Source: Escherichia coli (GTDB taxonomy: Bacteria > Pseudomonadota > Gammaproteobacteria > Enterobacterales > Enterobacteriaceae). Taken from it: 64,000 nucleotides of DNA. The stretch lies in NCBI RefSeq assembly GCF_017348835.2, contig NZ_CP071375.1; one strand, 5' to 3'. The translations under genes were made by a program, and so were the position numbers. The first letter of the stretch is position 1. Each line of letters opens with the position of its first letter. Positions 35,183 to 64,000 of the stretch are shown piece by piece. The notes beneath the pieces were generated by a model. The model was not told the origin of the DNA and searched no databases. It saw only the letters and a list, made by a program, of their open reading frames with translations.

Positions 35183-35191
35183 GGACAGAAG

Positions 35192-35737
35192 ATGCTGAAG
35201 TTACTGAAAACTATTATGCGCGCCGGAACCGCGACGGTGAAATATCCCTTCGCGCCACTGGAGGTCAGCCCAGGCTTTCGCGGGAAACCGGACCTGATGC
35301 CCAGCCAATGTATTGCCTGCGGTGCCTGCGCCTGTGCTTGTCCGGCAAATGCGCTGACTATCCAGACCGACGACCAGCAAAATTCGCGCACCTGGCAGCT
35401 CTATCTGGGGCGTTGTATTTACTGCGGACGTTGTGAAGAAGTGTGCCCGACCAGAGCCATTCAGCTTACCGATAACTTTGAACTGACCGTCACCAATAAA
35501 GCCGATCTCTATACCCGCGCGACGTTCCATCTACAACGTTGCAACCGTTGCGAACGCCCGTTTGCCCCGCAAAAAACCGTCGCACTGGCTGCTGAATTGT
35601 TGGCACAGCAACAAAATGCGCCACAAAACCGCGAAATGTTGCGGGCGCAAGCGAGCGTCTGCCCGGAGTGCAAACAACGCGCGACGCTGATCAACGACGA
35701 TACAGATGTACCGCTGGTGGCTAAGGAGCAGCTATGA
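35192..35737 (+). CDS. hyfH: Hydrogenase-4 ferredoxin subunit HyfH
   Basis: 181-aa ORF with two CxxCxxCxxxCP motifs. Confidence 0.9.
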
Positions 35738-36492
35738 GTCCAGTGCTTACACAACATGTCAGCCAGCCCATCACGCTGGACGAGCAAACGCAAAAGATGA
35801 AGCGGCATTTGCTACAGGATATCCGTCGCTCGGCTTACGTTTATCGCGTCGATTGCGGCGGCTGCAACGCCTGTGAAATCGAAATTTTTGCCGCCATCAC
35901 ACCCTTATTCGACGCAGAACGTTTTGGCATTAAGGTTGTTTCATCACCGCGTCACGCCGATATTTTGTTATTTACTGGCGCAGTCACCCGGGCGATGCGT
36001 ATGCCTGCACTTCGGGCGTATGAGTCTGCCCCCGATCATAAAATCTGTGTTTCCTACGGCGCGTGCGGTGTCGGCGGCGGTATTTTCCACGATCTCTACA
36101 GCGTCTGGGGCGGCAGCGACACCATTGTCCCCATTGATGTTTGGATCCCCGGCTGCCCGCCAACACCGGCCGCCACCATTCACGGTTTCGCCGTGGCGCT
36201 CGGTTTGCTGCAACAGAAGATTCACGCGGTGGATTATCGCGATCCCACCGGGGTGACTATGCAACCGTTGTGGCCGCAGATCCCGCCATCACAGCGTATC
36301 GCCATTGAGCGAGAAGCGCGGCGGCTGGCGGGCTATCGTCAGGGGCGAGAAATTTGCGATCGGCTCCTGCGCCATTTAAGCGACGATCCTACAGGAAATC
36401 GGGTTAACACCTGGTTGCGCGATGCCGACGATCCACGTCTCAATAGTATCGTTCAGCAACTCTTTCGCGTACTCCGGGGGTTACATGACTGA
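35734..36492 (+). CDS. hyfI: Hydrogenase-4 small subunit HyfI (NuoB-like)
   Basis: 252-aa ORF with NuoB-like cysteine pattern ([10 protein letters not shown] ... GCPP). Confidence 0.9.
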
Positions 36493-36898
36493 AGAGTGCG
36501 GGGAAATTGTTTTCTGGACGCTGCGAAAAAAGTTTGTCGCCAGTAGCGACGAGATGCCGGAACACAGCTCTCAGGTAATGTATTACTCGCTAGCTATCGG
36601 CCATCACGTTGGCGTGATTGATTGTCTGAATGTCGCCTTCCGCTGCCCACTGACGGAATACGAAGATTGGCTTGCACTGGTCGAAGAGGAGCAAGCCCGA
36701 CGTAAGATGCTGGGGGTGATGACTTTTGGTGAGATTGTTATTGACACCAGCCACACCGCCCTGTTGACCCGGGCATTCGCGCCACTGGCGGATGACGCGA
36801 CGTCTGTGTGGCAGGCGCGTAGCATTCAATTCATTCATCTGTTGGATGAAATTGTGCAGGAACCGGCCATCTATCTGATGGCCAGAAAAATTGCGTGA
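36485..36898 (+). CDS. hyfJ: Hydrogenase-4 maturation/accessory protein HyfJ
   Basis: ORF 36422..36898; 137-aa product from [16 protein letters not shown]. Confidence 0.85.
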
Positions 36899-36924
36899 GA
36901 AGGATTTCTCATTAATAAGGACTG

Positions 36925-51721: not shown

Positions 51722-53965
51722 TCAGGCACTTTCGCGAATGGGTTCGATTTCATTCAGCGTATCAATTAACGGTTGCGGCTTACCAATAAGATAACCCTGC
51801 ATATAATCGATCCCCAAAGAGAGCACTGCCTCGCGGATCTCTTCGTTTTCAACGTACTCTGCCACTACCAGCATTTTCTTCATTCGCGCCAGGTGGCAAA
51901 TCGATGCCACTATCTGATAATCCAGACTATTTGACACAATATTGCGGATAAAACTGCCGTCAATTTTAAGCAGATCGGCATTCACATTTTTAAGCCGCGC
52001 ATAGCTGGCGTAGCCGGTGCCGAAATCATCAATCGCAATCTGGCAGCCTAATTCCTGAAGATGCTGCAAGGTGATTTGCGCCTGCTTAACATTGGTCAGA
52101 GCATTACTTTCGGTGACTTCAAAAATAAGTTGCCACGCTTCAATCTGATATTTAGCCAGCAACTGACTGACTTCAACAGGAAAACGAGCCTGACATACCG
52201 AGGTTGGAGACAGATTAATAGCAAAACGGTGAGCGGGCATCTTCGCTCTGTTTTCAGCCATAAATTGCAGCGTATGCTCAATGACCCACATGTCGATACT
52301 CGACGATAAACCAAATTCGTGCGCGACCGGCAAGAAGCTATCGGGGCTGATCAGTTCATCATTCTCACCTTTCATGCGCAGAAGAATTTCATGGTAAACA
52401 TCACCACGCATACCGGTAATTGGCTGGGCCATCAGGAAAAAATGGTTGTGTTCCAGCGCCTGCTGTAGTCGATTCATCATCGCGACTTTATCTTTCAATT
52501 CGCGTTGCAAATACATTGCCCCGCGACGCTGCATATTTTCCGGGGCGTTGGTCACGATGGAAAGTTCGGCGACCGTATTTAGCTCTCCCAGCAGCAGGTA
52601 GATATAATTCACTGGCGAGCGCACATAGCAGTAACTGACGCCAATCTGCGGTTGCATCGGCATGCCATCCCAAAAGAAACGAAATTGCTTGAGATGGCTA
52701 TCCAGTGCGGTAATGCGCTCCTGGTGCGATTCTGTATTCAGTCGCAGCGCGAGATCGTTACCCGAAAGCTGATAAACATCTTCACCCGGTTCCAGCAATG
52801 GTGACAGCCAGTGAGAAAGTTTTTGCTTGTATTGAATCCGCAGCATGATGCCATAGTTTTTAACCAGCATTTCCATGCCAGGGATGCGTAAATAACAAAG
52901 CGCAGACCAGGGGGCATCACGCAACGCGCGATTCAGGGCGCGAACATTTGGCAGATGAACCACCGGGTCCACATACGCAAGCCGCTGAATGCGTCTGACT
53001 ACCGTTCTCTGACGGGTTGCCAGTACAGCCATATAATTGACAATAAAAGAGAATACCAGATAACTGGAGGAGGTTATGGTCAGCTGCGTGGTATAGCCGG
53101 GATAAATGGGAATGTAATTTTGATAGCTGTGGATGCTGATCATCAACACGACCGCCCAGAGCAGTGAAATCAGCTTATAACCATAGCGCATCGCTCCCCA
53201 CATCATCAGGGGCAGCAATAATGACAAGGTATAATTGGTGCTAAAAATTGTGCTTTTTTCATTTAACGGCATGCATAACAGCAACAGTAAAGCACCTAAT
53301 GCCAGTAGCCAGAGTGCGAACTCTTTTTTGGTGACTTTGACATCAACCTGCTGTTTTAATTGCGAATAATAACTACGTAAATAAAACGGATTTCGAACTA
53401 CCCGAATGATGAAGTAGCACAGCGGGACACCAATCAGATTGCCCACCAGTAAGGCCTGATAATTGATTAAAGTCCCGAGGTTAAAAGGCATGACACCGAC
53501 CAGATTTTCTCTGCTCGCCAGTAATCCTACAAATGCAGCAAACTGGAAAAGTATCAGAAACAGCGTTGCAGGAAACACAATCTGCCAGAATATACGCTGG
53601 GAAATTAAACGGGTATCACCATGTGAAACGTTGTTACGCCGGGGAGTAAAGACCCTGTAACCGCCCCAACAGAGAATGATAATGATGATAAAATTAGCCG
53701 TTAATGAGAGCGTTTCGTAAAAACCCAGCTCTGCATATTTGCGGACAAAAATCCCTAAGGCGATCCCTGGCAATGCCGCCCAGCTGAAAAACATCATCAT
53801 GCTGATCATCAGTGCCAAAGGCAGATAAAAGAGAAAAACCTCACCGGAAGAAATATGCGCGAAAGTATTAATGTGGGCGAAAATAGGCAAGATTAAAGAA
53901 GGCAGGAACAGCGGAAGCCCCCACCATTTATCACGTATTTTTATATAAGTTGCATTCAGTTTCAT
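51722..53965 (-). CDS. pdeF: Membrane-anchored cyclic-di-GMP phosphodiesterase (degenerate GGDEF plus EAL domain) YfgF/PdeF
   Basis: 747-aa ORF with an N-terminal multi-TM region and a C-terminal EAL domain (EVTES ... DDFGTGYAS). Confidence 0.9.
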   Translation of the reverse strand: MKLNATYIKIRDKWWGLPLFLPSLILPIFAHINTFAHISSGEVFLFYLPLALMISMMMFFSWAALPGIALGIFVRKYAELGFYETLSLTANFIIIIILCWGGYRVFTPRRNNVSHGDTRLISQRIFWQIVFPATLFLILFQFAAFVGLLASRENLVGVMPFNLGTLINYQALLVGNLIGVPLCYFIIRVVRNPFYLRSYYSQLKQQVDVKVTKKEFALWLLALGALLLLLCMPLNEKSTIFSTNYTLSLLLPLMMWGAMRYGYKLISLLWAVVLMISIHSYQNYIPIYPGYTTQLTITSSSYLVFSFIVNYMAVLATRQRTVVRRIQRLAYVDPVVHLPNVRALNRALRDAPWSALCYLRIPGMEMLVKNYGIMLRIQYKQKLSHWLSPLLEPGEDVYQLSGNDLALRLNTESHQERITALDSHLKQFRFFWDGMPMQPQIGVSYCYVRSPVNYIYLLLGELNTVAELSIVTNAPENMQRRGAMYLQRELKDKVAMMNRLQQALEHNHFFLMAQPITGMRGDVYHEILLRMKGENDELISPDSFLPVAHEFGLSSSIDMWVIEHTLQFMAENRAKMPAHRFAINLSPTSVCQARFPVEVSQLLAKYQIEAWQLIFEVTESNALTNVKQAQITLQHLQELGCQIAIDDFGTGYASYARLKNVNADLLKIDGSFIRNIVSNSLDYQIVASICHLARMKKMLVVAEYVENEEIREAVLSLGIDYMQGYLIGKPQPLIDTLNEIEPIRESA

Positions 53966-54316: not shown

Positions 54317-54508
54317 GTGAGTCAGGCAACCAGTATGCGAAAACGACACCGATTTAACAGTCGCATGACCCGTATCGTACTGCTCATCAGCTTTATCTTC
54401 TTCTTTGGCCGTTTTATCTACTCGTCCGTCGGTGCCTGGCAGCACCATCAGAGCAAAAAAGAAGCTCAGCAATCCACACTCTCCGTCGAATCACCGGTAC
54501 AACGTTAG
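54317..54508 (+). CDS. yfgG: Small protein YfgG
   Basis: 63-aa ORF with one hydrophobic segment, divergent from yfgF as in K-12; last backbone gene before the IS element. Confidence 0.7.
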   Translation: MSQATSMRKRHRFNSRMTRIVLLISFIFFFGRFIYSSVGAWQHHQSKKEAQQSTLSVESPVQR

Positions 54509-54601
54509 CGGTTACCTTCTCCACTTTCACAGAACATAACGGCACTTTGAACCGCCCCGGAAATCCTGGAGACTAAACTCCCTGAGAAAGAGGTAAACAG
54601 G

Positions 54602-54928
54602 ATGACTAAAAATACTCGTTTTTCCCCCGAAGTCCGTCAGCGGGCGATTCGTATGGTTCTGGAAAGTCAGGATGAATATGACTCACAGTGGGCGGCAATT
54701 TGTTCCATTGCCCCAAAGATTGGCTGTACGCCGGAGACTCTGCGTGTCTGGGTTCGCCAGCATGAGCGGGATACCGGGAGTGGTGATGGTGGACTCACCA
54801 CCGCTGAACGTCAGCGTCTGAAAGAGCTGGAACGTGAAAATCGTGAACTGCGCCGCAGTAACGATATCCTTCGCCAGGCTTCCGCTTATTTTGCGAAGGC
54901 GGAGTTCGACCGCCTCTGGAAAAAATAA
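54602..54928 (+). CDS. IS3-family transposase OrfA (HTH DNA-binding part)
   Basis: 108-aa [33 protein letters not shown]... with a leucine-zipper-like C-terminus; A-rich slippery run (ggaaaaaataatg) at its 3' end. Confidence 0.85.
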
Positions 54929-55815
54929 TGCCACTGCTGGATAAGCTGCGTGAGCAGTACGGGGTCGGACCGGTATGCAGCGAACTGCATATTGCCCCGT
55001 CAACGTATTACCATTGTCAGCAACAGCGACATCATCCGGATAAACGCAGTGCCCGTGCGCAGCACGATGACTGGCTGAAGAAAGAGATACAGCGCGTATA
55101 CGATGAAAATCACCAGGTATACGGTGTGCGTAAAGTCTGGCGTCAGTTGTTACGGGAAGGTATCAGAGTGGCCAGATGCACTGTGGCACGTCTCATGGCA
55201 GTTATGGGACTTGCCGGTGTTCTCCGGGGTAAAAAGGTCCGCACTACCGTCAGCCGGAAAGCCGTTGCCGCATGCGACCGCGTAAACCGTCAGTTCGTGG
55301 CAGAACGTCCAGACCAGTTGTGGGTGGCTGATTTTACCTGGGTAAGCACATGGCAGGGCTTCGTTTATGTGGCGTTCATCATTGATGTGTTCGCCGGATA
55401 CATCGTGGGATGGCAGGTCTCATCATCCATGGAAACAACATTCGTGCTGGATGCACTGGAGCAGGCGTTGTGGGCCCGTCGGCCGTCCGGCACAATCCAT
55501 CACAGTGATAAAGGTTCTCAGTATGTATCGCTGGCCTACACGCAGCGGCTTAAGGAAGCCGGATTACTGGCATCAACAGGGAGTACTGGCGACTCGTATG
55601 ACAACGCGATGGCTGAGAGCATCAATGGTCTTTACAAAGCGGAGGTAATACACCGTAAGAGCTGGAAAAACCGGACAGAAGTGGAACTGGCCACACTAAC
55701 GTGGGTGGACTGGTATAACAATCGACGATTGCTGGAAAGGCTGGGCCATATTCCTCCGGCAGAAGCAGAAAAAGCTTATTATGCTTCCATCGGAAATAAT
55801 GATCTGGCAGCCTGA
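54928..55815 (+). CDS. IS3-family transposase OrfB (DDE integrase catalytic domain)
   Basis: 295-aa ORF in the -1 frame relative to OrfA; rve/DDE core recognisable (WVADFTWVST ... DKGSQYVS ... DNAMAES). Confidence 0.85.
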   Translation: MPLLDKLREQYGVGPVCSELHIAPSTYYHCQQQRHHPDKRSARAQHDDWLKKEIQRVYDENHQVYGVRKVWRQLLREGIRVARCTVARLMAVMGLAGVLRGKKVRTTVSRKAVAACDRVNRQFVAERPDQLWVADFTWVSTWQGFVYVAFIIDVFAGYIVGWQVSSSMETTFVLDALEQALWARRPSGTIHHSDKGSQYVSLAYTQRLKEAGLLASTGSTGDSYDNAMAESINGLYKAEVIHRKSWKNRTEVELATLTWVDWYNNRRLLERLGHIPPAEAEKAYYASIGNNDLAA

Positions 55816-56045
55816 GTTCACAGATAAAACACTCTCCAGGAAACCCGGGGCGGTTCAAACTCGTACAGTGGCGTACCACTGGGGTCCATTCCTTCAAGTC
55901 TCAGGGAAGCCTCTGCTTTGCGGAAGCCCTCAATGCGTAACCGTGTATAGGGAGTCCTAGACATGTTTTTCCTTTGAGTTGCAGGAGTGAGGTTCGCTCA
56001 GTGAAAGCGTCAGCTCACGCAACCTCGTTAACTGACGCGCGTGAT

Positions 56046-57446
56046 TCAAGATTTATTATTACCCGATAAGCTATCACCGGCAAAATCATCATGTTCGCGG
56101 TTATCCCGACGAGTAGCTGTTTGTTTACTTATCTGAGTCGCCAACTCCTCTCCAATAGTTTGTTGGGCACGAGAAGAACTGCTACTTCGCTTCATTCTCT
56201 GGTACTCAGCAGCTCCGTTAGCCATGCTGCTTCCCATATGGCTTGCCATGCGGCCAGCACGCGAGAATGAAGCAAACCCCTGACTTCCTCCACTGGCGCT
56301 ACCTGAACTGCTCCCTGCAGACGAACCACTGTAACCGCCTGAGGTTTGGCCTCCAGAAGTATCTACAGAACCGGTATCTTCCCCGCCGCCAAATCCTCCA
56401 CCGGAACCGCCTCCGCTGCCTGAACCAGATTCTTCGTCCATGGCAGCTTGCGCAGACTCGAATGCTGCCTTTAATGCTGAAGCTCCGCCGCTGACTTGAG
56501 CTGATGCCCCCATTGCCATTGCTCCAGCACCGCTGATGGCAGTAGCGGCTGCGCCGGTAATCATACCCGCCCCAAATCCACCAATCCCTTGTAAAGAAGC
56601 CCCTCCTACAACACCTGATAACAACAGTGGTAGCTTATTAGTTAATACTAACAGGATAATTGACGCCAGAAGCAAAACTATAAGACTATTAAGATCAGGA
56701 ACATCATCTTTAATAAGAGAAAAATATTGATCTATAAATGATTGTCCAATCCCAATAATTAATGTCATCGTGAATAATTGAATGCCAATCGATAAAACAG
56801 TTCGTAAGTAATTAATTGCTATATCAGAGGTCCATTTCGAACCACCAAACCCAAGCAATATAACTCCTGCATAACATAACACCCATGCAGAAACCAACAT
56901 GATTAGCATATTTATCGCTATAAGGGACATCACTACCAAAACGATTATCGCGACTGTTATCATAATGGTGGATATCATTGGCGACCAAATTGATGCGGCT
57001 GAACTGATCTTGGTTAATATCGCAAACGCCATATCAACTATGCTTGAGGGAGAAATACCAATACTTATTTCTAAAGCGTTTGCTGCAAGTTGTCTCATTG
57101 AATTAATTATGGATTGCGATATGGATGGACCGTTGATTAAAAGATAATAAAAAAAACCAATGACGGCAAAAAAGCGAACTATTTCAGCAAGTACCCCTGT
57201 CAACCCTTCCCCTTGCATCGCCATCATACCAAATGTCCAAACCATACTTATTAATACCAGCCCCCAGAAGAGCCAATTTGCATAGTCAGCAATTACTGCT
57301 GTCCATGTACTGGCTACTTGTTGAAACTTATCTAATAAAGTATCAAGTAGCCCGCTACTATCTAATTGACCAGCATAGGCATTAATAGAAAAGAAAAGTA
57401 TGATACCTAAAAAGGTGAGCTTACTTACTATTTTCATGATTACCAT
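56046..57446 (-). CDS. trbL: TrbL/VirB6-family conjugative transfer membrane protein
   Basis: 466-aa ORF with signal peptide, several TM helices and a long Gly/Ser-rich hydrophilic C-terminal tail, the TrbL/VirB6 architecture; synteny with trbJ and a small lipoprotein gene upstream. Confidence 0.65.
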   Translation of the reverse strand: MVIMKIVSKLTFLGIILFFSINAYAGQLDSSGLLDTLLDKFQQVASTWTAVIADYANWLFWGLVLISMVWTFGMMAMQGEGLTGVLAEIVRFFAVIGFFYYLLINGPSISQSIINSMRQLAANALEISIGISPSSIVDMAFAILTKISSAASIWSPMISTIMITVAIIVLVVMSLIAINMLIMLVSAWVLCYAGVILLGFGGSKWTSDIAINYLRTVLSIGIQLFTMTLIIGIGQSFIDQYFSLIKDDVPDLNSLIVLLLASIILLVLTNKLPLLLSGVVGGASLQGIGGFGAGMITGAAATAISGAGAMAMGASAQVSGGASALKAAFESAQAAMDEESGSGSGGGSGGGFGGGEDTGSVDTSGGQTSGGYSGSSAGSSSGSASGGSQGFASFSRAGRMASHMGSSMANGAAEYQRMKRSSSSSRAQQTIGEELATQISKQTATRRDNREHDDFAGDSLSGNNKS

Positions 57447-57631
57447 TCTCGTTTAGGGCTTGGTTTATTATTACTCCGTAGAGCACATTTATCGTATTTA
57501 TGTTCATCAAATTTATTATCTGGCATCGATAAACAATCTTTATCATTTTTATCGCAAGAACATATGGCCAATAAACTGATCAGAATAAATACAATCAAAA
57601 AATTATCTTTCATTCTGCGTTTCCTCACCAA
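57440..57631 (-). CDS. Small lipoprotein in the TrbK (IncP entry-exclusion) position
   Basis: 63-aa ORF with a hydrophobic leader and Cys-containing lipobox-like motif (LLAICSCDK); overlaps the trbJ stop and trbL start, as trbJ-trbK-trbL does in IncP plasmids. Confidence 0.45.
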   Translation of the reverse strand: MVRKRRMKDNFLIVFILISLLAICSCDKNDKDCLSMPDNKFDEHKYDKCALRSNNKPSPKREW

Positions 57632-58419
57632 ATTCGCTTCGGGCTTGGTGTATTCTCTCCAGCTAACGCTTTTTCATCAGCGGCTATCTGTTGTGATTCT
57701 TTATCTGCCTGAGCCTGTGCCAGTGTTGCTGCAGCGTTTTGTTGGGCTACCAGAAGTGAGCGGATTTGCAGTAACTGATTTGTCTGTGCACTGGCAAGCT
57801 GGTTTGCCGCCTGAATAGCTTCCATTTGCCCTTGTGCGCCGCTTGCCTGAGTTTGTAATTCGGCAAGATTATCAGCATCGCTCTGCAGGGTGTTCTGCTG
57901 CTCGTCAATTACCTTAAATACTGCGTCATTGGCCTTTTTACGCGCCCCTGAGCTATTCTGTTCAGCTTCACGCAGTGCACTAATTTCAGACGCGGTACAT
58001 TCAACATTGCTGTTAAAGCAAGACGATGTCCTGTAGTAGTTAACATCCTGATAGCGTTTCAGGTACGCATCGAGACTCCCGGCCTGATTCTTGTAGTAAT
58101 TAAGGGTATCCTGCACCTGCAACAATTTATTAATTGTTGAATTTGCCTGGTCCCAGATATAGGCCGCAGGAGCTACGGTGTTCTGCAGCATGTTTTCATA
58201 CTGCTGCAGCTGCGTCTGGTACTGCTGGATTTGTTTAGTCACAGCCTGAACGTTGTTAACTGCGCTGATTGTGGTCTGAACCACATTAGTGCCATCAATA
58301 ACGGGAATTCCGGCCTTCACCGGTAATGCCATGACGGACGCCACGAAAGGAACTATTAAAGCTTTTTTAGCGGCTAAAATCCCTCTTTGTGATGAAACCA
58401 CTCGGAACTTTAAATTCAT
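57625..58419 (-). CDS. trbJ: TrbJ/VirB5-family conjugative transfer protein
   Basis: 264-aa ORF with signal peptide and Gln/Ala-rich coiled-coil stretches typical of TrbJ/VirB5 minor pilus/adhesin proteins. Confidence 0.6.
   Translation of the reverse strand: MNLKFRVVSSQRGILAAKKALIVPFVASVMALPVKAGIPVIDGTNVVQTTISAVNNVQAVTKQIQQYQTQLQQYENMLQNTVAPAAYIWDQANSTINKLLQVQDTLNYYKNQAGSLDAYLKRYQDVNYYRTSSCFNSNVECTASEISALREAEQNSSGARKKANDAVFKVIDEQQNTLQSDADNLAELQTQASGAQGQMEAIQAANQLASAQTNQLLQIRSLLVAQQNAAATLAQAQADKESQQIAADEKALAGENTPSPKRIW
58365..58379. promoter_or_regulatory. KorB-operator-like palindrome TTTTAGCGGCTAAAA (copy 1, inside the 5' end of trbJ)
   Basis: Perfect inverted repeat containing TTTAGCGGCTAAA, identical to the IncP-1 KorB operator consensus TTTAGC(G/C)GCTAAA. 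Confidence 0.6.
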
Positions 58420-58499
58420 TTGCTCACCTCTTTTTCAACAGATTAGTAATATTTAACACTCTGTCTGTTAACAGACGCAGGTATATAGGAAACCACACA

Positions 58500-58865
58500 T
58501 TATTTATCCAAGATTTTATCCATAATGTTCCTTAGTTCTTGCCGAGTTGATTCTATTTTCGCAAGCAAGGTTCTTATCAGTGTGGGTGAAAAATCAACTG
58601 TTCGAGGATCATTTGCGAGCCATAATTTAAGTAATCCGCCAAGTCTTCCAAGATCAGCATTTACTCGGCTAAGTTCATTAACCTGTTTTATATCTACGAT
58701 AGAATCAACCTGATAACCCATTGCAACTCTACGAACAAAACAGGCAACACTTAATCCAGATGCTTCTGCATTTTCTTGGATGAGAATTTTTTCTTCGGGT
58801 AAACAATAAACTTTTATTGGCGTACTATTTTTTCTAGTCTGAGTAACTTTCATATAGCTCTCCAT
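58500..58865 (-). CDS. MobC-family relaxosome accessory protein (ribbon-helix-helix)
   Basis: 121-aa ORF; VYCLPEEKILIQENAEASGLSVACFVRRVAMG ... LSRVNADLGRLGGLLKLW fits the MobC-family pattern; lies directly beside a candidate oriT region. Confidence 0.55.
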   Translation of the reverse strand: MESYMKVTQTRKNSTPIKVYCLPEEKILIQENAEASGLSVACFVRRVAMGYQVDSIVDIKQVNELSRVNADLGRLGGLLKLWLANDPRTVDFSPTLIRTLLAKIESTRQELRNIMDKILDK

Positions 58866-58939
58866 ACAGGCGGTAGCCTGGCAGCCTCGCAGAGCAGGAC
58901 GCCCTTGAGCCGCGATGCGGCGAATAGGGAGTGGTAAAG

Positions 58940-58995
58940 TTGGAACACCGTAGCGGTGGGCCCACTTTACATGTCCTGCCCTGCAGTTGCCGTTG
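58940..58995. promoter_or_regulatory. Candidate origin of transfer (oriT-like region)
   Basis: 10-bp perfect palindrome GTGGGCCCAC (58956-58965) immediately followed by CTTTACATGTCCTGCCCTGCAG, which resembles my recollection of the IncP nic region (core TCCTGCCC); adjacent to the MobC-like gene. Confidence 0.35.
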
Positions 58996-59252
58996 TATAT
59001 CTGTGCACGACAATGTGTATTTCAGTGTACAGGATGTGTTTTCTTAGCGTATTAATATAGGATTACTGGAGTAAATTTCTGCAGCAAATGTGTTTTTTGC
59101 AAGGAAACTATATTTCTCCCTTTTGAAAATGACCTTTAGTAGTTATAAATGGACGTCCACCAACTGTATTTATGTTTCGATATATTGTAAGAAGTCTTTC
59201 ATTTTCCGATGCACTTTTTTACTTACCTTGTCAGAGCATGTGCATTGCAGAT

Positions 59253-59265
59253 TTTAGCGGCTAAA
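59253..59265. promoter_or_regulatory. KorB-operator-like palindrome (copy 2)
   Basis: aTTTTAGCGGCTAAAATc; exact match to the IncP-1 KorB operator core, in the 675-bp intergenic region. Confidence 0.6.
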
Positions 59266-59501
59266 ATCTGCCTCCCTATGCCTAAAGCTAGGGGCGTACC
59301 TCATATGTCATAAAATCTACCTCAAGTGTCAATATACCAAACGTGTAAGTAATCTCTTCTTCTGGCGTACAACCATCGGTCTTTGGCCGATTCTAGATTT
59401 GAAAGCGCCTGCTCAGGCAGGTGATTTCAAAGCCTGAATATACTGGTTGATCCTGAATAACCTGCAAAGGAGTTAAAAAATCAGGCCTCTGTAGCACACT
59501 G

Positions 59502-59562
59502 GCGGGCCGTTACAGCACATCACCGGGCCGTAACGACACGTTACCGGGCCGTTGTAGCTCGT
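59502..59562. repeat. Three direct iteron-like repeats with 21-bp periodicity
   Basis: CGGGCCGT recurs at 59503, 59524 and 59545 with similar flanks (..TACAGCACAT / ..AACGACACGT / ..TGTAGCTCG); the third overlaps the stop codon of the putative initiator gene. Confidence 0.5.
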
Positions 59563-60314
59563 TTTATCCTAGAATTTTGTATCTCAATGCCAATCGCTAG
59601 AAATTGTTTGCTATCTTCTTTTAATCTCCGCCGATAGTTACGTAATGTCATATTATTGGTACCTTCACCACTGACAGCTAAAATTAATGTATCAATATGC
59701 CAGCCGCCTTTAGGATCGTGCTTATGTGTTAATATATGACGTGCAACTGCTTGGCTAATACCATGCTGGAGACGAGCAATAGGACCTGGATCATGATGAA
59801 AATGCAAATCTCGCTTCAACAACATTACCAATGCAACACCCAAGCGTACTCTCCATAGGTTACGTTCACCACCAGTTAGAGGATTACGCCTAGTCATTGG
59901 TGAGGGTACGACATGGTCAATTAAACCGCCTAGAATGCAATAACCGTTTTTTTCTAAATCTGGCGTTACTATTTCAACAGTTGCCACACGTAGATCAACG
60001 AGTAGTTTTTTAATTCGATCATAACTGTATTGTGCATCGGATAGAGTTCGGCGTACTTTCGCTGGATCTACTAATAACTCGATTCCTCCATCAGAAATTT
60101 CTCGACGTTTCTCGGCCACATAGAGCATTGTTTCCACAATATCCGCATGACGTTGTCCTAGTCTTCCGGTAACTCGACAACGACCAAAACTAGTCTCCAT
60201 CCACTGCCCCTTCAGCGCCAAGGGACGTTGACTTGGTTGGTACAGAATGACTCTAGCCTGCAGAGCTGTGCTAGTAGGTGTAACTTTATTACCAGTTATC
60301 ATTTTCTGCACCAC
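59541..60314 (-). CDS. Hypothetical protein, possible replication initiator (RepC-like by position)
   Basis: 257-aa basic protein directly downstream of the RepA-like helicase gene and ending in the iteron-like repeats; assignment rests on gene order, not on recognised motifs. Confidence 0.35.
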   Translation of the reverse strand: MVQKMITGNKVTPTSTALQARVILYQPSQRPLALKGQWMETSFGRCRVTGRLGQRHADIVETMLYVAEKRREISDGGIELLVDPAKVRRTLSDAQYSYDRIKKLLVDLRVATVEIVTPDLEKNGYCILGGLIDHVVPSPMTRRNPLTGGERNLWRVRLGVALVMLLKRDLHFHHDPGPIARLQHGISQAVARHILTHKHDPKGGWHIDTLILAVSGEGTNNMTLRNYRRRLKEDSKQFLAIGIEIQNSRIKRATTAR

Positions 60315-60330
60315 TCAATGAAGACATACA

Positions 60331-61146
60331 TTATTTTGCTATTTGTTTTTTATTCTTCGATTTGAGTTGCGTTATCCTTAATACTCCTCCCTCATGTCTC
60401 TGTAACCAACGTTCTGGCGTACGTTCTCCATAATTTGCTTTATTTATTCCAAATCTAACAAATTGACCTCGAACATCATCAGAAATATCATACGTCTTCG
60501 CTTCTAAGGCGGTCATGCCCGCCAGATAAGATTGCCACCGTATATTATCAACCAGGACGCTACTACCCCTGCTTGCCTGCTGTATATCACCAACTCCCAT
60601 CGTGGCAGAGCCTTTGTTTGAATGGTGTAGAAATATAATCGAACACCCTGTATCAGCAGCAATACCTTCTAGCTTTCCAATGACTTTGGACATTGCTCCG
60701 CTATTATTTTCATCTTCCTGGTGGAAACGGCGAAGAGTATCCAAAATTATTAACCGTCTACTTTTTGAAATCTCATTAATCAAGTTGCTCCAACCTGGCG
60801 AGAAAATATTTGGACACTTCCCTACCAAAGGTTCGACAAGTAGCTTATCAGCAACAATCTGCTGCTGACGTGCTGTTAGATATTTTCCCAAAGCATATAG
60901 ACGATGGTGAATGATGGTTGCAGAGTCCTCCACAGGTAAATATGCCACTAACCCCGTTGGATATTCACCAAAGTTTAAAAGATCTACACCACAAGTAATC
61001 TGCACAGCCAGTTGCAATGCCAGCATTGACTTTCCAACGCCTCCCGGAGAAACAATCGCTCCGATAGTACCAATAGCCAAATTAGGCAAGACGTAATCAA
61101 TTGGTTGCGGCTTAGCTTCAAATGCTTCCATTATGTTCAATGACAT
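60331..61146 (-). CDS. RecA-fold AAA_25 ATPase, RSF1010 RepA-like replicative helicase
   Basis: 271-aa ORF with Walker A (SPGGVGKSMLALQLA) and Walker B-like (RLIILDTL) motifs; size and motif layout as in IncQ RepA. Confidence 0.6.
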   Translation of the reverse strand: MSLNIMEAFEAKPQPIDYVLPNLAIGTIGAIVSPGGVGKSMLALQLAVQITCGVDLLNFGEYPTGLVAYLPVEDSATIIHHRLYALGKYLTARQQQIVADKLLVEPLVGKCPNIFSPGWSNLINEISKSRRLIILDTLRRFHQEDENNSGAMSKVIGKLEGIAADTGCSIIFLHHSNKGSATMGVGDIQQASRGSSVLVDNIRWQSYLAGMTALEAKTYDISDDVRGQFVRFGINKANYGERTPERWLQRHEGGVLRITQLKSKNKKQIAK

Positions 61147-61151
61147 TGCTG

Positions 61152-61403
61152 TTACCTACCTAAAACAATACCGGGTCTGGCTGCTTTAAACATTGCTGAT
61201 TTACGATCCGCAATCCACTGTTCCACTTCGGATAACTGCCATGCAACATTTCGGCTCGTAAGTGCTATACGGCGAGGAAACTCGCCTCGCTGTTCAAGGT
61301 TATAAATAGTGCGGGCTGACAATGGGATCATTTCCAGAAGTGTTTTTCTGTTAATGAGCGTGCTATGTGCCTTTGTTTGCATCTGCCTTCCTCCTGTTTC
61401 CAA
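61152..61403 (-). CDS. alpA: AlpA-family prophage/island transcriptional regulator (excisionase-like)
   Basis: 83-aa ORF with the AlpA HTH signature (LSARTIYNLEQRGEFPRRIALTSRNVAWQLSEVEQWI). Confidence 0.7.
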   Translation of the reverse strand: METGGRQMQTKAHSTLINRKTLLEMIPLSARTIYNLEQRGEFPRRIALTSRNVAWQLSEVEQWIADRKSAMFKAARPGIVLGR

Positions 61404-61459
61404 TCAGGCCTATACAATGCCAAGCATTACCACTTGCTAAAACCTATTCATTGGCTAAA

Positions 61460-62431
61460 ATGGTTGACATGAAAATTACTATCTGGGAAGGCTGTGACCT
61501 CACAGTTGCAGCTGCAATTAAATTATTTGTAGAGCGTAGTTCTCCGTACTCCATATTTTCACGGAGGTATCCAATACTGCGTCTCATACAGGAAGTTATT
61601 GATCCAGCAGTAGCTGATTATGTAAATTCCCTGCCACCAAGTCATAAAGACTACATTTCTGGAGTAAATCTAGGATTTAGTGAAGTACTTAAAAAATTGG
61701 GTTTAAACGTCGTAGTACAGGCACAAAGACTTCTTTTGCGTAATTTCGTTCTGACTTTAGATCAACAAACTTCTCTTGATAAATGCTTTACCGCTACGAT
61801 TGAGTCTCTTATTGAATTAGTCAGTGAATGCGCATCCAAGCGGCCGAAGAAATCCTCTCCTGCAAAAGGAGTAACTATAAATTCACAGCGTAAGCTCGGT
61901 TATTGCGAGTTCTGCGGTAATCTAACCGAATTTTCCAAGTTGATCAGTGAGATATCAGAATTTGTTGCTAACGATAATGAGTTCCCCGTTCATGAAAAAC
62001 AGGTCCTTAGTCATCGATATTGTTCTGACCATAGGCCCAAACTCACCAATGGTCTATGGAATCCCAAATACAGACAAGGAAAGCGGTCTCTCGAACAGTT
62101 CAATAAAGAATTAATAAGGCTTAGACGGCAATGCGCTAAACCTCATAAAGCTAACGCAAACACAGGGGATATATTGATTGATACATATTTTCATGAGTGG
62201 ATGCAGGGTCAAACTTTAACCCCAGCAGATCTAGATAAACTTAGGAATATCGCCAGACGAATGGTTGACTCCAAATTCACTGATACTAAGAAAAAAATAA
62301 TCATATTAAAACACCAAGGTTTTAACCAGTTTGAAACCGCACAGGTTTTAGAAAAAAATCACTACACAACTATGACAAAGCAGGCTGTGTCCAAGGCCTT
62401 AGCGTCTGTGAGGAAAGAATTTTATATTTAA
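61460..62431 (+). CDS. Hypothetical protein with Cys/His cluster and C-terminal helix-turn-helix
   Basis: ORF track starts at 61367, overlapping alpA; a more plausible start is the ATG at 61460 (MVDMKITIW). Contains CEFCGN ... HRYCSDH and a C-terminal HTH-like segment; no family recognised. Confidence 0.45.
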   Translation: MVDMKITIWEGCDLTVAAAIKLFVERSSPYSIFSRRYPILRLIQEVIDPAVADYVNSLPPSHKDYISGVNLGFSEVLKKLGLNVVVQAQRLLLRNFVLTLDQQTSLDKCFTATIESLIELVSECASKRPKKSSPAKGVTINSQRKLGYCEFCGNLTEFSKLISEISEFVANDNEFPVHEKQVLSHRYCSDHRPKLTNGLWNPKYRQGKRSLEQFNKELIRLRRQCAKPHKANANTGDILIDTYFHEWMQGQTLTPADLDKLRNIARRMVDSKFTDTKKKIIILKHQGFNQFETAQVLEKNHYTTMTKQAVSKALASVRKEFYI

Positions 62432-62856
62432 AATAGTATATCCACGAGCTATTATGGTGGCAGTTTAAGTCTTAATACCATCCACTTTATTGAATTATAA
62501 CCAGCCACTTACGAAGGTTTTTCGCGATTACCCTGCTTCAAATTGATGATTTTGAAAATACAGTATTATAGTTTATTGTTTGTAGCGCAGCTGTAAGCGT
62601 TATGCAAAATGGATCACAGTGATACGACCTCACCAGTAAATCACTGAAGCCGATCTGTAATGACATAGAACGAATTGGTTTTATGGTTATGCAATGGCTC
62701 ATCCCCTTACTTGTCCCTGACCATAAAAAGCATTCGCTTTCCTGAAAGCAAGTCTAAGCCAAGGGGCGTTTACAGTTGTCTTATCTTGACTCATTAGGTA
62801 CTGGCTTAATGATTAGAATCATGTCGGTGGCATTTAGGTCCAAATATGCCCAAAAT

Positions 62857-62869
62857 TTTAGCAGCTAAA
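62857..62869. promoter_or_regulatory. KorB-operator-like palindrome (copy 3, central A variant)
   Basis: aTTTTAGCAGCTAAAATt; same arms with a central A instead of G/C. Confidence 0.5.
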
Positions 62870-62900
62870 ATTCGTCTTCTCATGTAGGGTCAAGAAGCTT

Positions 62901-63098
62901 ATGACTAAACCTATTGATTATGTGAATTACCTTGTGAGTAATACTCGTAGGATGGAATCTTCCAAAACTCTGACAATTCACTCTGAATGCATGGTAACAA
63001 AGAACAGTTTAAACCATGGTCTGTTCAGCGTTAAATTTCTCAAGATAGACTTCCATTTCGCGAGTCCACCTAGGGGTAGGTACCGAGGTGATCATTAG
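62901..63098 (+). CDS. Small hypothetical ORF (65 aa), doubtful
   Basis: Begins about 30 bp after KorB-like copy 3 but overlaps the 3' end of the convergent 209-aa ORF; weak ribosome-binding site. Confidence 0.2.
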   Translation: MTKPIDYVNYLVSNTRRMESSKTLTIHSECMVTKNSLNHGLFSVKFLKIDFHFASPPRGRYRGDH

Positions 63099-63638
63099 CC
63101 AAGGAAACCACCATACAAGCATGAAGAGTAACATAAGCGGTGCGATCATTTCGGCCGAAGAATGAGAAACTATATACATAATGAATAATATTAGTAGAAC
63201 TGTGTTTACAATCTGACCTACCAGAAAAAGACGCCAGCGAAAACAATGCCATTTCCTGTTGAACACAATCCGTCCATCCCGTTCTTCGAGCCAGTTACGC
63301 CACGGCTTGAGATAACCAGCCCGCAACCCATAACGATCACACATTATTACAGCCAAATCCTGCAGCCGATAATTATACAAGCCTGTGAGCCGATAAAGGC
63401 TGCGCTGACGAAGCTCACGCTTTGCCAGACGGACCGCATTTTTATTCAAATATGGCTGTGTCAGCATTTGCTCTAGCCGGCGCTTCCTAAGATTGAGTAG
63501 TCCACGAAATACACTTCCAGATTCAGCATTAATTACTCTGTGACGAACTACACCGAGTGCAATATAGATACACAGCAATAGCCAGCCGGTCTTAGGGTAT
63601 TGATTCATCCATTGTATAATTACAGACAACTCAGGCAC
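63009..63638 (-). CDS. Hypothetical membrane protein (209 aa)
   Basis: Two to three predicted TM helices separated by an Arg-rich loop; KorB-like copy 4 lies about 55 bp upstream of its start; no family recognised. Confidence 0.5.
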   Translation of the reverse strand: MPELSVIIQWMNQYPKTGWLLLCIYIALGVVRHRVINAESGSVFRGLLNLRKRRLEQMLTQPYLNKNAVRLAKRELRQRSLYRLTGLYNYRLQDLAVIMCDRYGLRAGYLKPWRNWLEERDGRIVFNRKWHCFRWRLFLVGQIVNTVLLILFIMYIVSHSSAEMIAPLMLLFMLVWWFPWLMITSVPTPRWTREMEVYLEKFNAEQTMV

Positions 63639-63692
63639 TTTTATTTTTCCTTTTTATGCAATCCAGATAAAACCAGTAAAGATTCAGTAAAT

Positions 63693-63705
63693 TTTAGCGG
63701 CTAAA
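63693..63705. promoter_or_regulatory. KorB-operator-like palindrome (copy 4)
   Basis: aTTTTAGCGGCTAAAATt, between the 209-aa membrane protein gene and the integrase gene. Confidence 0.6.
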
Positions 63706-63761
63706 ATTGCTCTCCTGGCGTAGAAAAAAGAAGCACACCAACTTAACTTACTGATTATTAA

Positions 63762-64000
63762 CTACTTACTAGTCCATTCATCAATCATATTCGCCCAATC
63801 TTGTAGCATCTCAGCCCTCTGCTCACGATATTCTGCCTTGTTATAAACAGCTCGTACCCCTTTTTGTTCATGGGCAAGGCTCTTCTCAATCCAGTCAGTA
63901 TTGTACCCGGCCTCATGTAGCAAGGTGCTGGCTGTACGCCGTAAGTCATGGGGACCAAACTTAGGCAACAACTCCCCTTCTTTCTGAGCCAGGCGATACG
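63762..64000 (-). CDS. int: Tyrosine recombinase (P4-type integrase), C-terminal part; the gene continues past the window end
   Basis: Frame open to the window edge; C-terminal sequence ...GPHDLRRTASTLLHEAGYNTDWIEKSLAHEQKGVRAVYNKAEYREQRAEML contains the catalytic H-x-x-R and Tyr region of phage-type integrases. Confidence 0.75.
   Translation of the reverse strand, partial: YRLAQKEGELLPKFGPHDLRRTASTLLHEAGYNTDWIEKSLAHEQKGVRAVYNKAEYREQRAEMLQDWANMIDEWTSK

Follow-up and report, generated by a model that had tools for sequence, protein, structure and literature searches.

A probable PIME1-type mobilizable element core beside guaA in Escherichia coli, truncated by an insertion sequence-associated deletion

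The window, by which we mean the whole 64-kb stretch of E. coli DNA analysed here, ends in a segment (Table 1) that is very probably the core of a PIME1-type element belonging to the guaA-targeting group of GIsul2, which an insertion sequence (IS) has cut down, leaving it fixed in the chromosome. PIME1 is a family of integrative mobilizable elements described in a January 2026 preprint, in which 1,136 such elements are reported and helper-induced excision is demonstrated (bioRxiv 10.64898/2026.01.12.698999). A sequence-only reading of the window had recognised a foreign island of integrative mobilizable type here, one equipped for integration, replication and mobilization in which a relaxase, a coupling protein and a complete mating pore are all missing, and this assignment is borne out. 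The same reading had named the presence of this block at this locus in well-annotated genomes, with a described function, as evidence against it. The block is indeed known at guaA in 29 complete E. coli genomes among the matches listed, and its life cycle has been studied (bioRxiv 10.64898/2026.01.12.698999; PMC9376610); the island family is thus already known, and the window carries its conserved half.

Table 1. Features from yfgG to the end of the window
Feature	Position	Strand	Basis or remark
yfgG	54317..54508	+	last backbone gene; PGAP annotation of near-identical PE164 genome
IS3-family element, IS1203/IS629-like, 1,310 bp	54548..55857	+	terminal inverted repeats read directly
IS orfA	54602-54928	+	joined to orfB by -1 frameshift
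IS orfB	54928-55815	+	joined to orfA by -1 frameshift
higA' remnant, ~first 35 codons of HigA-family antitoxin gene	55859..55964	-	aligns to L003:20001-20106
trbL, VirB6-type mating-pore subunit homologue, 463 aa	56046..57437	-	TIGR02783, 270 bits, cutoff 129
trbK-like small lipoprotein, 57 aa	57440..57613	-	between trbJ and trbL
trbJ, VirB5-type mating-pore subunit homologue, 264 aa	57625..58419	-	NF010452, 379 bits, cutoff 286
traJ, ribbon-helix-helix oriT-recognising relaxosome accessory protein, 117 aa	58500..58853	-	NF010451, 160 bits, cutoff 134
IncP-type oriT	58883..58984	+	alignment to IncP plasmid oriT
oriV	59430..59558	-	direct repeats and flanking short repeats
RepC-position protein, 253-257 aa	59541..60302	-	synteny and adjacent iterons
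repA, RSF1010-type hexameric replicative helicase, 271 aa	60331..61146	-	PDB 1G8Y (RSF1010 RepA), E 4e-110
alpA, excisionase/regulator, 76 aa	61152..61382	-	PF05930, E 7e-13
'LuxR family'-labelled regulator, 323 aa, PIME1 hallmark	61460..62431	+	
Predicted membrane protein, 209 aa	63009..63638	-	ORF; annotated hypothetical
int', C-terminal 79 codons of P4-type tyrosine integrase	63762..64000	-	NF007246, E 1e-12 on fragment

The genes hyf, focB, bepA, hda, uraA, upp, purMN, ppk, ppx, pdeF and yfgG follow K-12 order, as had been proposed and as the PE164 annotation confirms, and backbone sequence continues for 39 bp beyond the yfgG stop, to 54547. The IS3-family element and the approximately 8 kb of AT-rich DNA expected beyond this point were found at or very near the positions first given; the 8.1 kb of 55858-64000 contain 42.3% GC versus 52.1% in the backbone, a comparison that the earlier reading had called for, and the lowest value for a backbone segment of the same size is 49.0%. 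The terminal inverted repeats of the IS begin TGAACCGCCCCGG, an ALIL frameshift pseudoknot lies at 54883-54999 (Rfam RF01497, 120 bits), and PGAP labels the element 'IS3 family transposase, programmed frameshift'; copies with approximately 96% identity in other genomes carry the name IS1203.

At the opposite edge the integrase gene extends past the end of the window. Its counterpart in PE164 encodes a 396-residue protein with Arm-DNA-bind_3, Phage_int_M and Phage_integrase domains (Pfam), and is followed by approximately 300 bp and then by attL (L001:29405-29423) and the guaA stop codon. In every intact relative examined, as in PE164 and F2_81, the gene adjoins guaA. The att core is a 19-bp direct repeat with the sequence AAATCATTCCCACTCAATG and overlaps the stop codon of guaA. 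Intact copies are flanked by these 19-bp direct repeats, which contain the GIsul2 core GAGTGGGA. The earlier guess of integration at the 3' end of guaA was therefore correct, and the remainder of the integrase, the host gene and the direct repeats, all sought in relatives, were located there.

Intact relatives, approximately 22 kb in length, are inserted with yfgI on one side and guaA on the other, and have variable cargo (including Gabija-like, DUF262, ABC-three-component, Fic and RecQ/DprA genes) beyond higA, which forms the border between core and cargo. As these copies retain yfgH and yfgI, the view that the island had replaced the K-12 neighbourhood does not hold. The higA remnant in the window matches a region inside the L003 higA gene (19672-20106). 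The sister strain F2_81 has an identical IS at the identical higA base, a complete element, and both yfgH and yfgI; the left flank of the window IS maps to L012:9885 in F2_81, where it continues into yfgH. Comparison with F2_81 reveals that 8,813 bp are absent next to the left end of the IS in the window, comprising most of higA, all of the cargo, attR, yfgI and yfgH. The absence of yfgH and yfgI results from a secondary, IS-associated 8.8-kb deletion, which took half of the island as well. The island had been described as partly in view; this is so at the integrase end, but on the IS side it is truncated, not merely unseen. Of 5,426 genomes, two contain the right IS junction and one contains the left. 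The window IS has no target-site duplication (flanks CTT and AAC), and none is present at the F2_81 copy either, which leaves two possible histories: the IS may simply have inserted and a neighbouring deletion have come later, or two copies of the IS may have recombined.

The former attR position, visible in F2_81 at L012:11322, lies inside the deleted 8,813 bp. No copy of the 19-bp core with three or fewer mismatches was found anywhere in the 64-kb window, and the 48-kb locus of PE164 contains a single copy, the one on the guaA side. Because attR has been lost and only attL is left, integrase-mediated excision of the window copy should be impossible, and the copy has probably lost its ability to be mobilized as an element. 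It is highly unlikely, given these losses, that the copy is still a functional mobilizable island excising through an unrecognised second att site or by recombination between attL and a pseudo-att site, even though int is intact in PE164, alpA, the regulator gene, repA, oriV, oriT and traJ are all intact, and the integrase of GIsul2 accepts alternative att sites, attLR among them.

The AlpA-like protein and the P4-type integrase fragment were both identified correctly at the outset. AlpA also matches the PHROG 'excisionase and transcriptional regulator' (E 5e-13), and its gene is divergent from that of the LuxR-labelled regulator, which has a C-terminal helix-turn-helix, an invariant CxxC...CxxH motif and an all-alpha N-terminal domain without a known fold. 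The gene for the predicted 209-residue membrane protein, for which family searches gave no match, lies in the small accessory slot that separates the regulator gene from int; this segment is present at 99.5% identity in H177 and H178, where the rest of the core query is unmatched. Two proteins of unknown family had been counted, whereas three lack a family match (257 aa, 323/354 aa and 209 aa).

RepA, recognised as helicase-like from the outset and confirmed as such by its structural match (Table 1), contains the Pfam AAA_25 domain (E 1e-28) and is 61% identical to IncQ1 RepA. The RepC-position protein has no match in Pfam, NCBIfam, PHROG or PDB, and its similarity to IncQ1 RepC is confined to a local match of 39 C-terminal residues (E 0.003), but it is 62-65% identical to the product of the gene following repA in the small IncQ2-typed plasmids pUL3AT and pSMBC31-5K. 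Within oriV, a 21-bp unit (consensus GCTNNAACGGCCCGG..) is directly repeated 3.5 times at 59475-59558; these repeats overlap the stop codon of the upstream gene and are followed by CAGG(T/A)TATTCAGG repeats; pUL3AT and pSMBC31-5K have 3.4-3.9 iterons of 21 bp in the same place, together with CAGGATATT repeats. Synteny and the adjacent iterons suggest that the RepC-position protein is a probable iteron-binding replication initiator. The oriV of PIME1-Mm has been mapped just downstream of repA (bioRxiv 10.64898/2026.01.12.698999).

Of the proteins first read as TrbL-, TrbK-, TrbJ- and MobC-like, TrbL and TrbJ are confirmed by HMM matches and the 'MobC-like' protein is TraJ (NF010451). TrbJ is 85% identical to its pJJ1886_4 homologue and TrbL is 58% identical to those of pJJ1886_4 and p591229_1, while TraJ shares 69% identity with p591229_1, 68% with pDS1, 60% with p14EC001a and 46% with the IncP-1beta plasmid pLME1. 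The 57-residue protein gave no match in family HMM searches; it has a lipoprotein-like signal and shares with pJJ1886_4 TrbK its length, 25% identity (pairwise E 6e-6) and a C-terminal SPxxxW, and may tentatively be regarded as TrbK, a candidate entry-exclusion protein. The oriT, which matches the Rfam traJ-II motif RF01760 (86.9 bits; gathering score 40), contains a 17-nt inverted repeat (58934-58950/58954-58970) and the nic motif TGTCCTG|C, and from knowledge of RP4 the nick presumably falls between 58978 and 58979 on the plus strand. A 17-bp repeat beside a conserved nic site is likewise described in PIME1-Ec (bioRxiv 10.64898/2026.01.12.698999). IncP-like plasmids of enterobacteria, rather than classical IncP-1, supply the closest counterparts of oriT, TraJ and TrbJ and are therefore candidate helpers. 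The element's own TrbJKL probably serve in remodelling of the helper pore, an idea published by Guedon et al. 2017, or in entry exclusion.

The trbJ-trbK-trbL, traJ and oriT regions, with 75% nucleotide identity to IncP-like plasmids, are clearly of IncP origin, repA is IncQ1-like and the window strain contains many IS elements, as might be expected if the segment were a fragment of an integrated IncP/IncQ plasmid or the decayed relic of an integrative conjugative element, outside any dedicated mobilizable family. We consider this extremely unlikely, as the compact core recurs with differing cargo at one att site in the 29 genomes mentioned above, without any other T4SS gene, relaxase or coupling protein, and is bounded by site-specific 19-bp repeats with its own integrase; the preprint's count of related elements and their helper-induced excision also argue against it. 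Equally, a P4-type integrase, AlpA, a helicase replicon and approximately 10 kb of defence cargo in an element of approximately 20 kb represent a layout typical of phage satellites (PICI or P4-like) spread by transduction, in which conjugation-type genes would be incidental. RepA matches phage primase/helicase PHROGs too, and occasional transduction has been speculated upon (bioRxiv 10.64898/2026.01.12.698999). This origin is nevertheless exceedingly improbable, since the core lacks capsid, packaging and helper-phage-interference genes, PHROG matches among the proteins scanned are limited to RepA and AlpA, the core contains a bona fide IncP oriT with TraJ, and the IncP plasmids pB10 and pKJK5 induce PIME1 excision (bioRxiv 10.64898/2026.01.12.698999).

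Assignment to the PIME1 subfamily was judged by published criteria, namely core genes in the integrase orientation and alpA divergent from luxR (bioRxiv 10.64898/2026.01.12.698999), and not by sequence identity to the type element PIME1-EcRHB23-C07, whose strain is absent among the 60 matches listed for the core query. Both features are present in the window, where all core genes share the integrase orientation, and the gene list matches that of the type element (int, alpA, luxR, repA, traJ, trbJ, trbL, no relaxase; 22.2 kb, beside guaA; bioRxiv 10.64898/2026.01.12.698999). Compared by description, the two agree in their E. coli host, site and absence of a relaxase, in the order int, alpA divergent from luxR, repA, traJ, trbJ, trbK, trbL, and in having an inverted repeat of 17 nt next to a nic site of IncP-like type; the type element further resembles the intact relatives in its size and in having defence cargo past the transfer genes. 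The window copy differs in lacking what the deletion removed.

GIsul2 (15.5 kb, sul2 and ars), as described in PMC9376610 and in Harmer et al. 2017 cited there, also occupies the guaA 3' end with 19-bp att sites and the same core, has int followed by alpA, repA/repC and trbJ-trbK-trbL, and lacks a relaxase, with IncP plasmids as proposed helpers; recombination at the guaA attB of E. coli requires both its integrase and its att sites (PMC9376610). Compared by description it would fall in a different subfamily, as no luxR-type regulator is reported for it, and its cargo is arsenic resistance and CR2-sul2, in contrast to the defence systems of the window's intact relatives. SGI1 with its IncC helpers resembles PIME1 in being relaxase-less, induced by a specific helper, replicating once excised and encoding its own versions of three helper pore subunits, but its sequences, integration site (trmE) and helper group are unrelated, and it lowers co-transfer of its helper, which is not seen for PIME1 (bioRxiv 10.64898/2026.01.12.698999). 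The IncQ plasmids (RSF1010; pUL3AT-type IncQ2) share with the window a RepA helicase and an initiator-position gene followed by 3.5 iterons of 21 bp, and are mobilised by IncP plasmids, whereas the element is integrated, has an integrase, and lacks the RepB primase and MobA relaxase. Its replication module is thus a mosaic of an IncQ1-like RepA and an initiator resembling that of pUL3AT.

The gene identities, the att core, the layout of oriT and oriV and the ends of the deletion are shown by the present analysis. Helper dependence and the need for int, alpA, luxR and repA are taken from the literature, which describes the first three genes as essential and repA-oriV as functional (bioRxiv 10.64898/2026.01.12.698999). 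In an intact element the P4-type integrase would recombine the 19-bp core over the last codons of guaA, leaving the gene undisrupted, and AlpA and the divergent LuxR-labelled regulator would trigger excision if an IncP-type conjugative plasmid were present. The excised circle would replicate via the IncQ-like module of RepA helicase, RepC-position initiator and 21-bp iterons, and TraJ would bind the inverted repeat at oriT, allowing the helper relaxase and Trb pore to transfer the element, with its own TrbJ, TrbK and TrbL probably remodelling the helper pore or its entry exclusion; the defence cargo would be located past trbL-higA. The plasmids pB10 and pKJK5 induced the E. coli PIME1 without mobilising it (bioRxiv 10.64898/2026.01.12.698999), so that transfer is at present hypothetical for E. 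coli members of the subfamily. In the window lineage the IS1203/IS629-like element would have landed in higA first, and the 8,813-bp deletion would have followed. The window copy would then be a stranded, ordinary remnant of such an element, its cargo and outer attachment site having been removed by the IS.

The DNA from 55858 to the end of the window has a GC content of 42.3%, compared with 52.1% for the backbone, in which 49.0% is the lowest value over any stretch as long. The sequence-only reading of an AT-rich foreign block after yfgG therefore describes something real rather than a chance fluctuation. By the published definition this island belongs to PIME1, a subfamily of integrative mobilizable elements that has already been described, and the window holds a decayed copy, which shows every structural feature of PIME1 except those that a deletion destroyed. 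PIME1 elements are defined by co-orientation with int and by a luxR gene divergent from alpA, and the accessory region next to the transfer module often carries immune systems (bioRxiv 10.64898/2026.01.12.698999). In the window, int, alpA and repA are accompanied by trbJ and trbL that score above their NCBIfam cutoffs, all within 9.1 kb; the core genes all lie on the minus strand and the "LuxR" gene is divergent from alpA. The accessory region, about half of the element in PIME1, has been deleted from the window and is present in two intact-relative loci (L002 and L003) and in that of the sister strain F2_81 (L012); its absence is decay of this copy and not a difference in kind. The island core has matches in 123 of 5,426 complete E. 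coli genomes (coverage of at least 80% of the query in 29), all of them chromosomal, and several of the matching copies are also interrupted by an IS. Readings of the island as a decayed ICE, as an integrated plasmid and as a phage satellite were each considered and rejected.

Features of the island and of the adjoining backbone
Feature	Position	Strand	Remarks
hyfR	36928-38939	+	reading frame ends near codon 647 of 670
pdeF	51722-53965	-	intact 747-codon ORF
yfgG	54317-54508		
IS3-family element	54548-55857		1,310 bp; terminal repeats TGAACCGCCCCGG... / ...CCGGGGCGGTTCA
higA remnant	55859-55964	-	about 35 codons left; IS abuts
trbL		-	TIGR02783, 270 bits (cutoff 129)
trbK-like		-	57-aa lipoprotein-like ORF; weak match to plasmid TrbK, 25% identity
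trbJ		-	NF010452, 379 bits (cutoff 286)
traJ		-	NF010451, 160 bits (cutoff 134)
traJ-II (Rfam RF01760)	58883-58981	-	86.9 bits (gathering score 40)
oriT, 17-nt inverted repeat	58934-58950 / 58954-58970		then TGTCCTG/C (slash, presumed nick); repeat (58934-58970) adjoins TGTCCTGC
Replication module	59541-61146	-	
RepC-position protein		-	253-257 aa; no family match; stop adjoins or overlaps iterons
repA		-	E 4e-110 to RSF1010 RepA crystal structure 1G8Y; Pfam AAA_25
alpA	61152-61382	-	PF05930, E 7e-13
"LuxR family" regulator (PGAP label)	61460-62431	+	323 aa; 77 bp from alpA, divergent
Membrane protein	after regulator, before int		209 aa; no family match
int, 3' part	window end		last 79 codons of tyrosine integrase

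The protein that had been taken for a MobC-like product is TraJ. The trbK-like ORF has position, length and a C-terminal motif in common with plasmid TrbK. In PE164 (NZ_CP114128.1), a near-identical genome, the integrase is seen at full length and is of P4 type, with the domains Arm-DNA-bind_3 / Phage_int_M / Phage_integrase. The 257-aa, 323-aa and 209-aa proteins have no match in sequence searches of Pfam, NCBIfam, PHROGs, PADLOC and the PDB. For the 323-aa protein we found 373 homologues of similar length in which a CxxC...CxxH motif is invariant; its "LuxR" label is backed by a C-terminal GerE/sigma-4-like HTH alone, the one part that a structural model accounts for. A scan of promoters and terminators gave nothing clearly above shuffled sequence: promoter-like sites numbered 27, where 18.4 +/- 3.7 were expected, and terminators were fewer than expected. 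The segment 62789-63700, which covers the 209-aa membrane protein beside int, is found at 99.5% identity in genomes such as STEC309 and 2018-10-2CC, where the remainder of the core query has no match, and this suggests that the integrase-proximal end is common to other guaA islands.

The replication module is a mosaic, in which an IncQ1-like RepA is combined with an initiator-position protein resembling that of pUL3AT and pSMBC31-5K. RepA is 61% identical to that of IncQ1/RSF1010 and 41% to that of pSMBC31-5K, while the 257-aa ORF is 62-65% identical to the product of the gene right after repA in pUL3AT and pSMBC31-5K, two small mobilizable plasmids typed as IncQ2. In the window, as in these two plasmids, tandem 21-bp repeats (3.4-3.9 copies) that have a CGGCCCG core in common adjoin or overlap the stop of this gene, and beyond them are CAGGATATT-like repeats. 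The synteny and the adjacent iterons lead us to regard the 257-aa protein as a putative iteron-binding initiator. IncQ replicons combine a RepA helicase, a RepC initiator, a RepB primase and iterons of 20-22 bp. The module is like them in its RepA helicase and iterons; the match to IncQ1 RepC is weak, covering no more than 39 residues at the C-terminus (E 0.003), and the window has no gene for a RepB primase.

Upstream of traJ lies an oriT in which the inverted repeat is followed by the nic region, the nick being placed, as we assume by homology to RP4, at 58978/58979 on the plus strand. Over a core of 112 nt this oriT is 81.7% identical to those of both p591229_1 and p14EC001a, 79.0% to that of pDS1 and 73.9% to that of pLME1 (IncP-1 beta), which was used as a stand-in for the IncP-1beta plasmid pB10, just as pZ1323CEC0003-4 was the IncQ1 stand-in for RSF1010. 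The GTCCTG variant of the nic motif is also found in pDS1. The island has the IncP-like oriT of PIME1, with a 17-nt repeat and 74-82% identity to IncP oriT cores; a 17-bp repeat beside a conserved nic site is likewise reported in the E. coli type element (bioRxiv 10.64898/2026.01.12.698999). The Rfam traJ-II match coincides with this IncP-type oriT, and RF01760, which Rfam curates as a cis-regulatory RNA, is here most simply a DNA-level transfer origin.

In PE164 the integrase is followed by about 300 bp and then by guaA, and the same core is located between yfgI and guaA in intact relatives, for example 2017.20.01CC, RM10042 and F2_81. A direct repeat of 19 bp, AAATCATTCCCACTCAATG, flanks the intact elements, and its copy on the guaA side overlaps the guaA stop. 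The guess that integration had occurred at the 3' end of guaA was thus correct, since int adjoins guaA and the repeat lies over its stop codon; attL and the int-guaA adjacency are seen in PE164, just outside the window. The repeat includes TCCCACTC, the reverse complement of the core GAGTGGGA contained in the 19-bp att sites of GIsul2, whose integrase uses the same guaA att site (PMC9376610). The two islands share this att core at the guaA 3' end. The sul2, ars and CR2 genes of the GIsul2 cargo are absent from the window, and PIME1-Ec is reported to resemble GIsul2 only to a low degree and in part (bioRxiv 10.64898/2026.01.12.698999). A second copy of att is seen in F2_81 and other relatives and is absent from both the window and the PE164 locus. 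With this site lost, integrase-mediated excision of the window copy should be impossible.

The K-12 gene order is kept through pdeF and yfgG, according to the PE164 annotation, up to an IS in which a frameshift joins orfA and orfB and an ALIL pseudoknot scores 120 bits; in other genomes, copies with about 96% identity carry the name IS1203. No target duplication surrounds the IS in the window (CTT on one side, AAC on the other). In F2_81 the IS interrupts higA at the identical base, also without a target duplication, in a complete element that continues with the remainder of higA, an ABC-three-component system, DUF2326, and RecQ-like and DprA-like genes, and that ends at a slightly degenerate attR (L012:11322) with yfgI and yfgH beyond. 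Compared with F2_81, exactly 8,813 bp are missing from the window, from the left end of the IS to a point 39 bp past yfgG. The junction between the IS and the higA remnant occurs in 2 of the 5,426 complete E. coli genomes and that between yfgG and the IS in only one. The arrangement in the window would fit an IS-mediated adjacent deletion; recombination between two IS copies would leave the same product, and the two routes are inseparable because the F2_81 IS also lacks a duplication. The loss of yfgH and yfgI is collateral damage of the deletion. The sequence-only reading was accordingly right about the type of mobilizable island and its integration site, and wrong in having the island replace the K-12 neighbourhood, where yfgH and yfgI were instead lost with the 8,813 bp, and in treating it as mobile today, attR having been deleted. 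Matches to the IS ends occur at no fewer than 31 sites in PE164 and no fewer than 26 in F2_81, and with such a high IS load further IS-mediated rearrangements are likely in this lineage.

The window differs from PE164 at 4 bases among 28,151 aligned (46003, 52606, 52908 and 55698), two of which are inside pdeF. This gene, intact in the window, is flagged with an "internal stop" in PE164 and is split in F2_81 by another copy of the same IS (target duplication TTT). From the differing bases and the states of pdeF it follows that the source of the window is a third, very close strain beside PE164 and F2_81. The reading frame of hyfR, which PGAP annotates as frameshifted in PE164, closes early in the window, so that this regulator of formate-hydrogenlyase 4 probably has an altered C-terminus. 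Outside the window, in the interval from xseA to yfgJ, PE164 carries an island with sinH, SinI and a 6.4-kb adhesin (34127-44029 of the PE164 locus, L001); this island downstream of guaBA-xseA is also present in F2_81 and is absent from L002 and L003.

The E. coli type element, PIME1-EcRHB23-C07, is 22.2 kb in size, lies beside guaA and carries traJ and defence cargo without a relaxase; pB10 and pKJK5, both IncP plasmids, trigger its excision and do not mobilise it (bioRxiv 10.64898/2026.01.12.698999). The same study reports IncP-induced excision and replication for both PIME1-EcRHB23-C07 and PIME1-MmNCTC12028, finds that the Morganella relative cannot excise without int, alpA and luxR and that its repA-oriV is a working replicon, and leaves open the helper of the E. 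coli members, a "distinct helper" being said to be missing (bioRxiv 10.64898/2026.01.12.698999). Copies of TrbJ, TrbK and TrbL have been proposed to reshape the pore and exclusion of an IncP helper (Guedon et al. 2017). In the window, TrbJ and TrbL are 85% and 58% identical, respectively, to proteins of pJJ1886_4-type plasmids, and TraJ is 69% identical to that of p591229_1, 68% to that of pDS1, 60% to that of p14EC001a and 46% to that of IncP-1 beta. Among 72,556 plasmids, the best DNA matches to trbJ-trbL (75% identity) belong to an enterobacterial IncP-like lineage, described in the literature as IncP plasmids from farm E. coli. In the nic-proximal arm of the oriT repeat, to which TraJ binds, one base differs from p591229_1 and many differ from IncP-1 beta. 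The likeness in TrbJ, TraJ and the oriT arm makes the enterobacterial IncP-like plasmids candidate helpers, and we suggest tentatively, with more doubt than confidence, that in nature PIME1 members of E. coli may have as helpers plasmids of the pJJ1886_4, p14EC001a, p591229_1 or pHNFP671 type, often found in E. coli from livestock, and not the classical IncP-1 beta and epsilon plasmids, which induced the type element without mobilising it.

For discovery this copy has little value: what the family is, where it integrates, that it needs a helper and that it carries defence systems have all been described before, and the cargo to which the family owes its interest has been lost here. Together with F2_81 it provides a before-and-after example of how an IS erodes such islands, taking yfgH and yfgI along. 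The comparisons of oriT, TraJ and TrbJ also name a specific plasmid lineage as a candidate for the missing helper, a question left open in the preprint. The element is locked and its oriT is live, which makes it a possible source of chromosomal mobilisation: with oriT and traJ both undamaged, a cognate helper, if the proposed assignment is true, could nick the chromosomal oriT and start an Hfr-like transfer beginning with the rep-int-guaA-guaB side.
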